NCBI GenBank assembly: GCA_046483005.1
Contig: JAWOEA010000001.1
Span: 1 to 51,630, forward strand
Direction: 5' to 3'
From: Candidatus Undinarchaeales archaeon
GTDB lineage: Archaea; Undinarchaeota; Undinarchaeia; Undinarchaeales; JALTGF01
Length of the DNA: 51,630 bases
Shown here in pieces: positions 10,201 to 40,841 of the stretch. Within the stretch, counting starts at the first letter, position 1; every line of letters begins with the position of its first letter. Under the pieces are notes generated by a model. The model worked only from the letters and a program-made list of their open reading frames with translations, did not search any database and was not told where the DNA came from. A program made the position numbers and the translations under genes.

Positions 10201-10222
10201 AGGATTTTAAGTTAAGAAAAAG

Positions 10223-10294
10223 AGCCTCGACCGAGAGTTGAACTCGGGACCTCTTCCTTACCAAGGAAGCGCTCTACCACTGAGCTATCGAGGC
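10223..10294 (-). tRNA. tRNA-Thr (GGT), no intron, CCA not encoded
   Basis: GCCTCGA acceptor stem, TAGCTCAGTGGTAGAGC D-arm, CTTCC-TT-GGT-AA-GGAAG anticodon arm, CCGAG-TTCAACT-CTCGG T-arm. Confidence 0.97.
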
Positions 10295-36680: not shown

Positions 36681-37514
36681 ATGGTCTATATAACTAAAGT
36701 AGACGGAAGAAAAGAAAAGTTTGAAAGAAAGAAAGTATACGGGACCTGTATCAGAGCAGGCGTCCCGAAAAAAGTAGCATCAAGGATTTCAAAAGAAGTT
36801 GAAAATGAAATACACGAAGGCATTTCTTCCAGAAAAATTTTAGATATTGTTCTTAAAAAATTAGATAGATATAAAAGCCAGCATTCTGCTCTTTATAATT
36901 TAAAAAAGGCACTTGCTGATTTAGATCCTGGAGACAGTCAGTTTGAGAAATACGTAAGACATATTCTTAAAGAACACGGATACAAAACCAGATGGAACAA
37001 AATAATTCAAGGAGAATGCATAGAACATCAGATAGACGTAATTGCTGAAAAAGACGATAAGAAATATCTGGTTGAATGCAAACATCATATAAATCCTCAT
37101 AGATATTCAGGACTAGGAACTGCTCTGCAGACCTGGGCAGTCATTGATGATATGAGAAAGGGCTTCAAAAAAGGAAAATCAAAAGAAAAATTTGAAAATA
37201 TCTGGCTTGTCACAAATACAAAGTTTTCAGCTCATTCAATCAGGTATGCGAAGGCCAAAAAAATGCGATTAATTGGATGGGATTATCCAAAAGGGAATGA
37301 TTTGAGGCATTTAATTAAAAAGAAAGGAATTTATCCAGTAACGATATTAGACGGAAATAAAAAAGTAATTAAGAAATTCACAGATAAAGGCATTCTTTTA
37401 ATAAAAGAAGTAAATGAAAAAACAGTTAATGAGCTAAACAATAAAACCAAAATTAGTAAGAAAAAACTCAAAAAAATTAAAAAAGCAGCAAGGAAAATTC
37501 TTAAATCAGGATGA
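36681..37514 (+). CDS. ATP-cone plus Mrr-like PD-(D/E)xK nuclease domain protein
   Basis: ITKVDGRKEKF ATP-cone; FEKYV, QIDVIA, VECKHH, WLVTNTKFS, GWDYP. Confidence 0.82.
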   Translation: MVYITKVDGRKEKFERKKVYGTCIRAGVPKKVASRISKEVENEIHEGISSRKILDIVLKKLDRYKSQHSALYNLKKALADLDPGDSQFEKYVRHILKEHGYKTRWNKIIQGECIEHQIDVIAEKDDKKYLVECKHHINPHRYSGLGTALQTWAVIDDMRKGFKKGKSKEKFENIWLVTNTKFSAHSIRYAKAKKMRLIGWDYPKGNDLRHLIKKKGIYPVTILDGNKKVIKKFTDKGILLIKEVNEKTVNELNNKTKISKKKLKKIKKAARKILKSG

Positions 37515-38735
37515 TTTCTTAGCTTCCTTTTCTTTTTCTTCTTCCTGATCTTCTTTGTATTTTGAAAAAATTAGACCAAAGATTGTACTTGAAAGTATTG
37601 TTAAGAGAACGGCCATAAAAGCAGTTATCAAAATAATTTCAGCTTCCGGTATAAAGCTGGTAAGTCCTTCTTTTACTGCTATTGAAAGAGGTATTGCAGC
37701 AATCGCCGCACATGCAGCTCCCCTCGGACCAGTAAATGAAACCAGAAGTATTTCTTTTAAATCCATTTGTTCATTAATTAAAGCAAAAACAGAAAAAGCA
37801 GGTCTGATAATAAAAATTAAAGCTCCTATTAAAAGAAGCTCCTTCATCAAAATTCCTGGAACTGCCATCAAAGATATTTGAGCCCCCAATAAAGTAAATA
37901 CTGAAATATTCAGCATAATTGAAAGAGAATCCTCAAAACCGCCGATGTCCTTTTTGAATGGAATTTTCATATTTCCAAGGATTATAGCGCAGATAGCAAC
38001 TGCAAGTATGCCGGAGCCGCCGATGTTTCCAGCTGCTGCATAGGTAATTAGAGCAATGGCAAAACCTAAAATCGGGGACAGCTCTTTTTGAGTTCTTCTA
38101 AAGACATGAACCGCTGCAAACCCAATTACAACTCCTGTTCCTACTCCGGCGGCAATCAACTGCCAAAATTGAGAGATTGCAGTAGTTGGGTGTGAAATAG
38201 TTCCTACCAAGAAACCGAGAAGGAGAAGAGGAACGAGAACCGTCAATGGATCGCTGAAAATAGATTCAATTAAAAGAATATCTAGAGTATCTTTTTCTTC
38301 TTTTAGTGTTCCTCTAAAAGTTACAATAGCTGAACTGGAGCTTCCTCCTATTACGGCGCCAAGAATAAAACTTCCAATCCAGGAAAGAGAAAATATTGAA
38401 TGAGCAAGTAATGCAGTTGTGATCATTGCAAAGAAAAACCCACCGAATGCAAGTTTAAGTGAAATTGTTGAAACTCTTTTAAATGTAGATAATTTTAAAT
38501 GAAATGCACTTGCAAAGGCAATTACTACAAGAGCAAGAGTTCTTAAAAATACTGGAATGTCACCCATGCTTCCTACATTTACTAAATTGAGGACGGTTGG
38601 ACCGAAAACTAAACCAACTAGAAGGAGAAAGAAAGCTTCAGAAATATTATGCCTCTTGGTAAAATGCATTATTAAGATACCAAAACCTAGAAGAGTTGCA
38701 AAGTATGTTACTGTCGGCAGCATATCTGCGGGCAT
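37506..38735 (-). CDS. CPA1 (NhaP-like) cation:proton antiporter
   Basis: Multi-TM; ESIFSDP, GSGILAV, IRP, GPRG motifs. Confidence 0.88.
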   Translation of the reverse strand: MPADMLPTVTYFATLLGFGILIMHFTKRHNISEAFFLLLVGLVFGPTVLNLVNVGSMGDIPVFLRTLALVVIAFASAFHLKLSTFKRVSTISLKLAFGGFFFAMITTALLAHSIFSLSWIGSFILGAVIGGSSSSAIVTFRGTLKEEKDTLDILLIESIFSDPLTVLVPLLLLGFLVGTISHPTTAISQFWQLIAAGVGTGVVIGFAAVHVFRRTQKELSPILGFAIALITYAAAGNIGGSGILAVAICAIILGNMKIPFKKDIGGFEDSLSIMLNISVFTLLGAQISLMAVPGILMKELLLIGALIFIIRPAFSVFALINEQMDLKEILLVSFTGPRGAACAAIAAIPLSIAVKEGLTSFIPEAEIILITAFMAVLLTILSSTIFGLIFSKYKEDQEEEKEKEAKKSS

Positions 38736-38782
38736 GGATTGAATTAAGAATTGAAGATTATAAAGTTATTGATTTAAATTGA

Positions 38783-39388
38783 TTAAAAATTTATAGTTAT
38801 TACGGCATCTTTTGACATGTATTTCAAGTTATCACTATTGAACTCATCATAGTCTATGTTTGCATAGTCATCTAAATCATAGTATATTTTTTCCCCTTCG
38901 CCTTTTACAAAACCGTATTTCTTCGGCTCTATATCTATTTTATTTATGACACCATATTTTCTGGCATGTTCGTCTACTAATTCCACATGACCTCCAGCAG
39001 TTAAATCTTCTGTAAGAAGACCCGCTTCTTTGTTTTCCCCATCTTTTCTGTAGATTACACCAACACAGAAAGCCGGGACCCGTTTTCCTTCTTTTTTTAG
39101 TTTCTCTGCATTTCTGCAGTAATTTTCAAAAAGTTTAAGGTACTTGCTGAAATCGTGTTTGAACCATGCTTTAGTATTATCATCTGTAATTCTACGGTAT
39201 GCAACAAATCTGTTTTTAAGCTTTCCAATTCTGTATACAGAACTTATTGAACCATCTCCTATCAATTTAGGAAATGGTTTTCTTTCAATATGCCATTTAT
39301 CTTCCATATAGTATCTTTTAAGACGGAGAGGAATTTCTGTTTCCTCTATATATCTTTTAATTCTCTGAGACCTTTTGAAGTAATTCAT
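38783..39388 (-). CDS. Hypothetical protein with partial protein-kinase-like motifs
   Basis: IGDGSISSVY, FVAYR, GLLTEDL, YYDLD; no HRD-type catalytic loop seen. Confidence 0.45.
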   Translation of the reverse strand: MNYFKRSQRIKRYIEETEIPLRLKRYYMEDKWHIERKPFPKLIGDGSISSVYRIGKLKNRFVAYRRITDDNTKAWFKHDFSKYLKLFENYCRNAEKLKKEGKRVPAFCVGVIYRKDGENKEAGLLTEDLTAGGHVELVDEHARKYGVINKIDIEPKKYGFVKGEGEKIYYDLDDYANIDYDEFNSDNLKYMSKDAVITINF

Positions 39389-39451
39389 ATTAAATAACTA
39401 ATTTTTATTTTATTTAATATTTCTCTAAGAGTGGTTTATCAATCAGCGGGC

Positions 39452-39663
39452 AAATAAGACTTCAAAAAAGTACGAGTTTAGCGAGTCTTATTTCCGTGCA
39501 TACAAATTGGAAGATAAGCACGGAACGTAGGACCAATTCACAAAGAGTAGGTTTGTCCAAGATATAGTGCAAACAAATTGCATTGTTGTCCAGCCTACTC
39601 TTTGTGTTACCAGATTTTTCAGGACAGAGAACCAATTGCATAGTTAATCAATTTAAAAATCTG
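39452..39663 (-). ncRNA. Candidate structured RNA of four adjacent stem-loops downstream of tRNA-Phe
   Basis: Stems 39452-61/39484-93, 39492-99/39518-25, 39539-51/39594-606, 39611-19/39655-63; function unknown. Confidence 0.55.
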
Positions 39664-39666
39664 AGG

Positions 39667-39740
39667 TGGGACTGGTGTGATTTGAACACACGACGCCCAG
39701 ATCTTCAGTCTGGTGCTCTCCCAGGCTGAGCTACAGTCCC
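39667..39740 (-). tRNA. tRNA-Phe (GAA), no intron
   Basis: GGGACTG acceptor stem, TAGCTCAGCCTGGGAGAGC D-arm, CCAGA-CT-GAA-GA-TCTGG, GTGTG-TTCAAAT-CACAC. Confidence 0.97.
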
Positions 39741-39839
39741 AATACTAAAACAGTAGTAATAGAGGAAATTATAACTTAAATAACTTACTGGATACCACAA
39801 TAATTATAAGGAATGGCCATGTTATTAAAACACTCTTAA

Positions 39840-40841
39840 ATGAAAAGCATTAAAACAAGAAACTTAACAAAAAAGTTTGGAACCTTAACAGCAGTTGATT
39901 CTATAAATATAGAAATAGAAAAAGGAGAATTATTTGGTTTTCTAGGACCAAATGGAGCCGGTAAAACCACAACTATTTCCATGCTTTCAACCCTGCTTGA
40001 GCCAACAAAAGGTTCTGCAGAAATAGCAGGACATGATTTAAAAAATGAACAGGATGAAATTAGAAAATCTATAGGAATTGTTTTTCAGGACCAAAGTTTA
40101 GACGAAGAGCTTACAGGATATGAAAACTTAGATTTTCACGGCAGATTATACGGAATGAAGAAAAAATTAAGAAAAGAAAGGATAGAGGAAGTTTTAGAAT
40201 TAGTTGAACTAAAAGGAAAGGCTAAAAATCAGGTTAAAAAATATTCAGGTGGAATGCGTCGCCGTTTAGAAGTTGCGAGAGGATTAATGCATCATCCAAA
40301 CATACTGTTTTTAGATGAACCTACACTTGGACTCGACCCGCAGACAAGAAGAAAACTCTGGGAATATATTAAAAATCTAAATGAAAAAGAAGACATTACC
40401 ATAATTTTAACTACCCACTATATGGAAGAAGCGGACTTTCTATGCGATAGAGTTGCAATAATTGACAAAGGAAAAATAATAGCAAAAGATTCTCCTTCAA
40501 AGTTAAAAGAAGGACTCGGCGGGGATGTTATTTCTCTTAAATTTGAGACAAAAGATAATAAAAAATTTATTGACAAGCTAAAGAAAACAAAATGGATTAA
40601 AAAATTAAAGGAGCATGACGGACACCTTGATATAACTACTAAAAACGCAGATAAACGAATTACAAAAATAATAGAGCTTGCAGGGAAAAATAATATTGAA
40701 ATTGAAACACTTACAATAAACAAACCAACCCTCGAAGAGGTCTTCCTCCACTTCACAGGAAAAACAATCAGAGAAAAAGAAGCAAACGAGGCTGAATCAT
40801 TTAAAATGAGAAGCAGAGCCCGTATAAGGAGAAAAAAATGA
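39840..40841 (+). CDS. ABC-2 exporter ATP-binding subunit (DrrA-like)
   Basis: GPNGAGKTT, YSGGM, LDEPT, TTHY. Confidence 0.93.
   Translation: MKSIKTRNLTKKFGTLTAVDSINIEIEKGELFGFLGPNGAGKTTTISMLSTLLEPTKGSAEIAGHDLKNEQDEIRKSIGIVFQDQSLDEELTGYENLDFHGRLYGMKKKLRKERIEEVLELVELKGKAKNQVKKYSGGMRRRLEVARGLMHHPNILFLDEPTLGLDPQTRRKLWEYIKNLNEKEDITIILTTHYMEEADFLCDRVAIIDKGKIIAKDSPSKLKEGLGGDVISLKFETKDNKKFIDKLKKTKWIKKLKEHDGHLDITTKNADKRITKIIELAGKNNIEIETLTINKPTLEEVFLHFTGKTIREKEANEAESFKMRSRARIRRKK

Follow-up and report, generated by a model that had tools for sequence, protein, structure and literature searches.

Hairpin modules behind an Undinarchaeales tRNA-Phe gene: a likely truncated, gene-less insertion cassette

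The four hairpins that directly follow the tRNA-Phe gene in the stretch of Undinarchaeales DNA analysed here (51,630 nucleotides; the window) were interpreted as a truncated insertion cassette without genes, of a type that targets the 3′ ends of stable-RNA genes and whose first module, M1, would supply the terminator. This reading, to which we assign a probability of roughly 55%, is drawn from sequence comparisons. The source of the window is a 722-kb Undinarchaeota genome in 50 contigs (G000; 79% complete), which was analysed within a phylum set of 17 genomes that included a sister species (G001; 84% complete) and a neighbouring genus (G002).

The whole array spans positions 39664–39440 of the minus strand, with the four hairpins in series, and starts at the 3′ end of tRNA-Phe(GAA) (39665..39740, minus strand; called by ARAGORN and matched by the Rfam tRNA model with 65.9 bits). 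Each hairpin corresponds to a module on the same strand. M1 (39610..39664) comprises a basal stem of 9–10 bp (39655–39663 with 39611–39619), which contains a T-run in its 5′ arm and encloses two tandem 16-nt units. M2 (39539..39606) is a 68-nt palindromic element starting with CACAAAG and ending with CTTTGTG, the arms of which form a 13-bp stem (39594–39606 with 39539–39551). M3 (39492..39538) has an 8-bp stem (39518–39525 with 39492–39499) preceded by GGTCCTAC, which pairs with a distal GTAGGAC in full-length cassettes. M4 (39440..39493) combines a 10-bp stem (39484–39493 with 39452–39461) with a T6 run in the loop and a GC-rich tail. BLAST searches yielded eight copies of M3 and eight of M4, counting those of the window. 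The repeat stops at 39440 and is followed by a remnant of the ancestral tRNA-Phe trailer (39427..39439, minus strand), which forms the distal edge of the insertion. The next gene in the ORF list, which encodes 201 aa on the same strand as the tRNA (38783..39388), lies outside the repeat and gave no match to Pfam or NCBIfam. An ORF of 59 aa within the array (39462–39641, minus strand) was judged spurious because copies of the array vary by insertions, deletions and nested inserts. Elsewhere in the window, the other tRNA gene, tRNA-Thr(GGT) at 10222–10294, is followed by a plain T5 trailer free of repeat modules, and the 277-aa ORF at 36681–37514 joins an Mrr-type restriction endonuclease fold to an ATP-cone and a C-terminal AF1548-like domain.

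A preceding sequence-only reading had proposed that the hairpins make up one undescribed structured RNA, co-transcribed with tRNA-Phe and released by tRNA 3′ processing, presumably by tRNase Z, with loops serving as a guide, a protein-binding array or an antitoxin. Its structural description was confirmed, as every detail it listed occurs in the window copy. The four stems were recovered on the minus strand directly after tRNA-Phe, with lengths of 9–10, 13, 8 and 10 bp, and the minimum free energy of the array was −58.2 kcal/mol, compared with −40.9 ± 4.1 kcal/mol for 200 shuffles (z −4.26; none as good). Likewise, the absence of a described family was borne out by Rfam 15, which over positions 38500–40500 at E ≤10 returned only tRNA above the gathering score; at related loci, only tRNA, rRNA and RNase P RNA were found. 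Strong folding and novelty with respect to Rfam are thus in favour of an RNA, but the plus strand of the array folds equally well (z −4.59), so that folding energy favours neither strand.

The loops fared worse. AAUU(G/U)GU does occur four times in the window copy, as had been noted, and UGCAAU is present in both apical regions; however, the hairpin 1 version was retained in only 11 of 17 copies and the hairpin 2 version in one of nine aligned copies, with UACAAU in the other eight. Similarly, the UGUCC of hairpin 1 and the two GGACA motifs of hairpin 2 are present, but the full copy on contig C13 no longer allows the pairing proposed between them. Covariation was detected in the hairpin 1 and hairpin 2 arms, and none of it suggested guiding. 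With neither loop motifs nor inter-hairpin pairing conserved, guide-like loops lack support. As to the apical stem of M1, its U-G closing on the minus strand is real (29 G-U versus 3 A-C cells over 17 copies), and this excess, being compatible with an RNA read in the tRNA sense, counts in favour of a co-transcribed RNA and against a cassette; yet only 76.5% of the cells of this helix are paired, and no pair is changed on both sides.

Two more specific proposals were considered and rejected. In archaeal C/D-box sRNAs, a conserved C box (RUGAUGA) lies close to the 5′ end and a D box (CUGA) precedes a terminal stem, with space for guide regions; one fused to a tRNA has reportedly been described for Nanoarchaeum. 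Over 17 copies, CUGA before the 3′ arm of M1 is invariant, with only ~22 nt between it and the C-box position. The latter reads UUGAUUA, UUGGUUA, UUUGUUA or UUUAUUA, and because of this variation the array was not regarded as a C/D-box RNA or K-turn. The motif AATTKGTT was evaluated as a binding site: the arrays contain 26 sense occurrences and one antisense, compared with a genome-wide density of 0.25 per kb. Since the two units present in every M1 copy account for most of them, the excess is not independent evidence.

Comparison within and between genomes revealed that the array is a mosaic of separately recurring repeat modules, at variance with a single structured RNA. When the 225-nt stretch was searched against its own genome, 12 further matches were obtained, with partial copies that break at hairpin borders and a full copy with 91% identity behind tRNA-Arg(TCG) on contig C13. 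Among 60 other genomes, the sister species contained 14 matches and G010 a weak one, with none in the remaining 58. A repeat map was computed with low-complexity filtering, since lysine/glutamate-rich coding repeats contaminate the unfiltered map, and it placed 13 of the 14 regions of G000 that are repeated at least five times behind stable-RNA genes or tRNA-end copies, a count that includes contig C47, where the upstream RNA is without identification. Array composition differed by locus (M1 alone, M1-M5, M1-M3-M4 or M1-M2-M3-M4), which argues against a dedicated RNA, and the aligned copies ended short at differing points. Arrays with a 63-nt element nested in M2 occupy three loci, one following tRNA-Lys, one following RNase P RNA and one at the terminus of contig C27. 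All complete copies of the nested element are 100% identical, although the M1 copies ahead of it differ, so that arrays have been copied or recombined as blocks; identical M2-to-M3 segments also follow differing M1 copies on contigs C34 and C48. Separately, the loci behind tRNA-Arg(TCG) (C13:2650-2898) and RNase P RNA (C48:4580-4800) have downstream sequence in common, including a gene start, at which contig C13 ends, owing either to gene duplication or to a repeat-induced assembly break.

The stems are far better conserved than the rest of the array: relative to 12 other copies, 17 of 468 stem sites differ, compared with 140 of 896 outside the stems (odds ratio 4.9), a contrast that remains large even though its p-value overstates the case, given the relatedness of the copies and the use of the window copy to define the stems. 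Some M2 copies carry uncompensated mismatches. The preserved arms count in favour of the cassette reading, but such conservation is also compatible with a host function, which weighs against it and leads to an alternative that we consider unlikely, namely a REP/BIME-like mosaic of terminators or insulators kept by the host behind highly transcribed stable-RNA genes. These repeats would stop transcription from either side or protect 3′ ends, and would have spread by ectopic recombination without an enzyme of their own. Conserved and covarying stems, the placement of repeats behind stable-RNA genes in 13 of 14 regions and the identical M2-to-M3 segments behind differing M1 copies all agree with this proposal, but copies that end short at different points do not.

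The relationship with stable-RNA genes was most evident for M1, for which a covariance model (R1) detected 11 copies in G000, 10 in G001 and a single weak match in the other 15 genomes of the phylum (G004; E 1.7e-5). Seven of the G000 copies start 1–8 nt past tRNAs called by ARAGORN (Phe, Ser-CGA, Ala-CGC, Leu-TAA, Glu-CTC, Lys-CTT and Pro-CGG), three directly follow a duplicated tRNA 3′ end (Arg-TCG, Ser-GGA and Ile-GAT), and one directly follows RNase P RNA (Rfam, 150.8 bits). The G001 copies are found behind ARAGORN tRNAs (five), an intron-containing tRNA (one; Rfam, 52.4 bits), tRNA-end copies (two), an uncalled tRNA-like 3′ end (one) and the stop codon of a 176-aa ORF (one). All 21 lie on the strand of the upstream gene. 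The link with tRNA seen at the window locus therefore stood, as 20 of the 21 copies from the two species lie immediately 3′ of a stable-RNA gene or tRNA-end copy on the same strand, which would suit a co-transcribed RNA. Conversely, the copies behind RNase P RNA and a protein gene are not explained by a tRNA-specific attachment site and weigh against the cassette reading. Restriction to essentially one genus speaks both against a co-transcribed RNA and against a mosaic maintained by the host, and the latter must further accommodate that 23 of the 33 G000 tRNAs manage without M1.

A run of T5–T7, which constitutes one arm of the 9–10-bp stem, was present in all 17 aligned M1 copies and begins 3–8 nt past the tRNA end. 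Runs of 5–6 T are reported to stop archaeal RNA polymerase efficiently (PMC2253867), as are U-tracts together with aCPSF1 (PMC8716108). With at least five T just past the RNA 3′ end, M1 has the appearance of an archaeal oligo-T terminator. The run is located between the tRNA and the hairpins, which goes against release of the array by tRNA 3′ processing. The basal stem that contains it is 92.9% paired and has two covarying positions, as it alternates between two complementary versions in which G-C is replaced by A-U and A-U by C-G at adjacent positions. Its lack of strand bias (9 G-U versus 6 A-C cells), along with T-runs on both strands of this stem and in the loop of M4, would be expected of a bidirectional terminator kept by the host, but an insulator is at odds with the orientation of downstream ORFs, of which five are co-directional and four convergent behind M1, compared with 10 and 12 where M1 is absent (crude ORF calls).

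The evidence for insertion came from the tRNA trailers, the tRNA-end copies and the comparison of filled and empty sites. tRNA-Phe was located in 15 of the 17 phylum genomes, and its downstream sequence in other genera consists of a plain, short T-rich trailer and then a minD-like gene. The final 13 nt of this trailer (ATAAACCACTCTT in G003; near-identical in G010) follow M4 at 39427–39439 of the window, so that M1–M4 was placed between tRNA-Phe and its ancestral trailer. An array that is an insert at this point is not what a tRNA-released RNA would predict. Full cassettes of G000 and G001 continue beyond M4 with a further hairpin module and a copy of the last 15–25 nt of the host tRNA, whereas the window cassette, compared with those on C27 of G000 and at L029 and L031 of G001, stops after M4 and has lost the last hairpin and the tRNA-end copy. 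No second tRNA-Phe end was found on the window contig, a point against the cassette reading, and the insertion of the window copy itself was therefore deduced from its relatives and the kept trailer.

Filled and empty states were found in both directions. tRNA-Gly(GCC) is empty in G000 and is followed in G001 by M1-M5 and a 16-nt tRNA-end copy ahead of the same downstream gene; reciprocally, a tRNA ending in CCCGGGGCTA is filled in G000 and empty in G001. Furthermore, tRNA-Phe of G001 has gained an additional module and a 17-nt tRNA-end copy ahead of M1. A copy of the 3′ end occurs 54–207 nt downstream of eight of the 33 G000 tRNAs, with none farther along the contig, and direct repeats of the tRNA 3′ segment flank the insert at Glu in G000 and at Leu, Ser-CGA, Ile and Gly in G001. 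The tRNA-end copies of complete cassettes and the filled and empty sites mark insertion rather than a built-in signal, and thereby also disfavour a mosaic of host-kept terminators. Two further tRNA-Phe genes are unusual in their own right. That of G001 (L068:1501-2205) is split near the anticodon loop by ~630 nt with an open frame of ~206 aa, which gave a borderline LAGLIDADG-like match (22.1 bits; cut-off 22.5) and looks like an intron-borne homing endonuclease that is absent from tRNA-Phe of the window. That of G002 (L060) apparently contains an insert of ~40 nt in the T-loop before the 3′ end and is followed by an M6 cassette and a second 3′-end copy.

M6 is a right-end module that starts with GGAGGT and has a 9-bp stem, which is 91.7% paired and shows three pair types at one position. 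It was detected in eight of the 17 phylum genomes (loci L079–L097, G000–G010; for instance L089:1441-1576 in G010). In 15 of 19 matches, M6 is followed by a copy, 12 to ~55 nt in length, of sequence located 23–254 nt upstream, mostly a tRNA 3′ end and in G010 also the last 25 nt of pheT; the site in G003 that is orthologous to this pheT insertion is empty. For every right-end type, a hairpin precedes the duplicated target by 3–10 nt, which hints at recombination that reads folded DNA rather than at an ordinary integrase or transposase. Pairing of the M6 GGAGG with the duplicated target, assessed by eye to probe the possibility of a T-loop intron, did not prove general, as it is absent for the Phe and pheT targets.

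Hairpin 2 has a distribution of its own. A search for its arm pattern retrieved 22 distinct elements in four of the 17 genomes (G000, G001, G003 and G010), which belong to two families of the order, with no matches for a reversed control pattern. Both free arm positions are Watson–Crick paired in 20 of the 22 elements, and all four pairs occur at one of them. The elements were found nested in a paralogue, inside M6 in G003, in a tRNA intron in G001 and directly behind a tRNA in G010, and arrays without M2 occur as well. No common target and no common target-site duplication was recognised in the flanks at the places read. Metagenome contigs from four runs, at 85% likeness, carried module copies elsewhere and three joints that skip hairpin 2 by connecting 39532/39533 to 39607; these are a mere hint of separability because such likeness probably means paralogous arrays or relatives. 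From these comparisons, hairpin 2 is most likely a small palindromic mobile element in its own right, which inserted into the cassette. The G001 intron belongs to a tRNA-Leu(CAA)-like gene (L103:1300-1680) and consists of an M5-like unit interrupted by an element of the hairpin 2 family. With M5 and M2 inside a tRNA intron, some copies are certainly transcribed, a point in favour of the RNA proposed by the sequence-only reading. Weighed against the terminator run, the foldable plus strand, the unconserved loops and pairings, the changing composition, the variable C-box position and the narrow distribution, a structured RNA co-transcribed with tRNA-Phe was nonetheless deemed improbable, and the comparisons lend no support to a guide or antitoxin RNA released from the tRNA. 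That reading had itself named the end of an integrated element as the finding that would speak against it, and the comparisons come close to this.

The search for an enzyme that might move the cassettes, which carry no gene, was directed at both species with M1. No Y1 transposase (PF01797) was found in G000 (79% complete) or G001 (84% complete), nor was Cas1 or TnpB above the cut-off in either genome; within the phylum, Cas1 was present in one of 17 genomes (G010). Casposons are characterised by a Cas1-type integrase and a fixed target duplication of 14–15 bp. A casposon-like insertion was accordingly rejected, with Cas1 not found in G000 or G001 and duplications that vary from 11 to ~55 nt. 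G000 does encode a tyrosine recombinase of 430 aa (C28:1461-2945; L037, L069), which scored 77 bits against an XerA cut-off of 220 and belongs to a type present in three of the 17 genomes; none was detected in G001 (84% complete). About 70 nt separate its gene from an upstream, intron-containing tRNA-Gly(UCC) missed by ARAGORN, and the gene adjoins non-coding iteron-like repeats with AATCCTA-type motifs; by its gene context, the locus probably represents an integrated element resembling a plasmid or virus. Against the cassette reading, neither an excised nor a circular form of a cassette was seen, and no virus or plasmid bearing the modules was found. Viral contigs gave no matches to the M1 and M9-hairpin patterns, and eight matches to a 17-mer of M6, all in unrelated GC-rich contexts, were judged to be due to chance.

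The presence of such an element raises the alternative that the window array is a passive scar, i.e. the worn end of a once-large virus or plasmid that integrated at tRNA-Phe and was deleted down to a few hundred bases. In published work (PMC9897764, PMC3293823), tRNA genes are described as standard integration sites, and the 3′-end copies left there are explained by the integration of large elements. The integrase-bearing element behind tRNA-Gly(UCC) and the shortened state of the window copy are consistent with such an origin. It is contradicted, however, by the recurrence of the same modules with the same borders behind many RNA genes in two species, by the copying of the whole array to three loci and by stems far better kept than their surroundings, and no repeat module lies next to the recombinase-bearing element on C28. 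A passive scar was consequently ranked as low as the co-transcribed RNA.

Under the favoured reading of a gene-less cassette, a cassette would enter by recombining with the 3′ end of the tRNA, using a junction in which a right-end hairpin is followed by a tRNA-end copy and then M1, with the recombination enzyme supplied in trans; the tyrosine recombinase next to tRNA-Gly(UCC) in G000 is a candidate only. Upon insertion, the T5–7 run of M1 would become the terminator of the tRNA gene, and the hairpins behind it would therefore be transcribed only by read-through. The arms would be kept because the element needs its hairpins, either as folded DNA or as a terminator, to persist and spread. An insert size of 60–350 nt, far below that of known integrase substrates, counts against this scheme.

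With considerably more reserve, the order may be suspected of hosting an undescribed class of such elements: miniature, gene-less cassettes built of hairpins, which would home to gene ends, bring their own terminator and duplicate 12–55 nt of the target. On the same reading, they may home above all to the 3′ ends of tRNA and other stable-RNA genes, with the duplication leaving the gene intact. In addition, arrays of tRNA-end copies could, as decoy attachment sites, protect the tRNA genes that a reduced genome has in single copy. A literature search found no description of gene-less cassettes of this kind for Undinarchaeota or DPANN.

If the cassette reading is true, the region would represent no new regulatory RNA but a clear and datable case of tiny gene-less elements that colonise tRNA flanks in streamlined DPANN archaea, spare the function of the target gene, replace its terminator and leave copies of tRNA ends behind. 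It would bear on why tRNA genes are favoured landing sites, on the smallest unit that site-specific recombination can still move, and on the fragments and odd introns of archaeal tRNA genes, given that modules sit in a tRNA intron of the sister species. The covarying hairpin arms provide a concrete handle towards finding the enzyme. At a practical level, hairpin arrays of this kind break assemblies and risk being mistaken for non-coding RNA genes.

Among known systems, archaeal oligo-T intrinsic terminators resemble M1 in that its T5–7 run begins 3–8 nt past the mature RNA 3′ end; M1 differs in that the run is an arm of a conserved, covarying hairpin around two tandem 16-nt units, and archaeal termination is not known to require such a hairpin. 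Marks of MITEs include target-site duplications of constant length and an autonomous IS relative that has the same ends. Like prokaryotic MITEs, the hairpin 2 family is short (58–74 nt), non-coding and multi-copy, with 13-bp arms as terminal inverted repeats, and its members are inserted into modules or nested in a paralogue. Unlike MITEs, it shows no target-site duplication, conserved target or partner transposase (Y1, Cas1 and TnpB were sought), its arms covary instead of adhering to one fixed sequence, and it is almost confined to stable-RNA flanks and introns.

The REP/BIME elements of enterobacteria are extragenic mosaics of palindromic units in variable order, located just downstream of genes. 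The arrays share this palindromic, variably ordered architecture, and a role in termination or stability is plausible for them too. They deviate in that no RAYT or Y1 transposase was found in G000 or G001, that their stems are AT-rich, that they lie behind stable-RNA rather than mRNA genes and that full cassettes contain tRNA-end copies. The closest parallel is with the attL/attR sites of tyrosine-integrase elements, which (PMC9897764) likewise insert at the 3′ part of a tRNA, leave it intact, accrete in tandem and have a distal direct repeat, which in complete cassettes runs from the T-loop to the discriminator over 15–25 nt. The cassettes depart from these elements, as the window copy is without the distal repeat, no integrase is linked to them, they are gene-less, measure 60–350 nt and consist of conserved hairpin modules, and one set of modules is shared by many different tRNAs, RNase P RNA and the ends of some protein genes.
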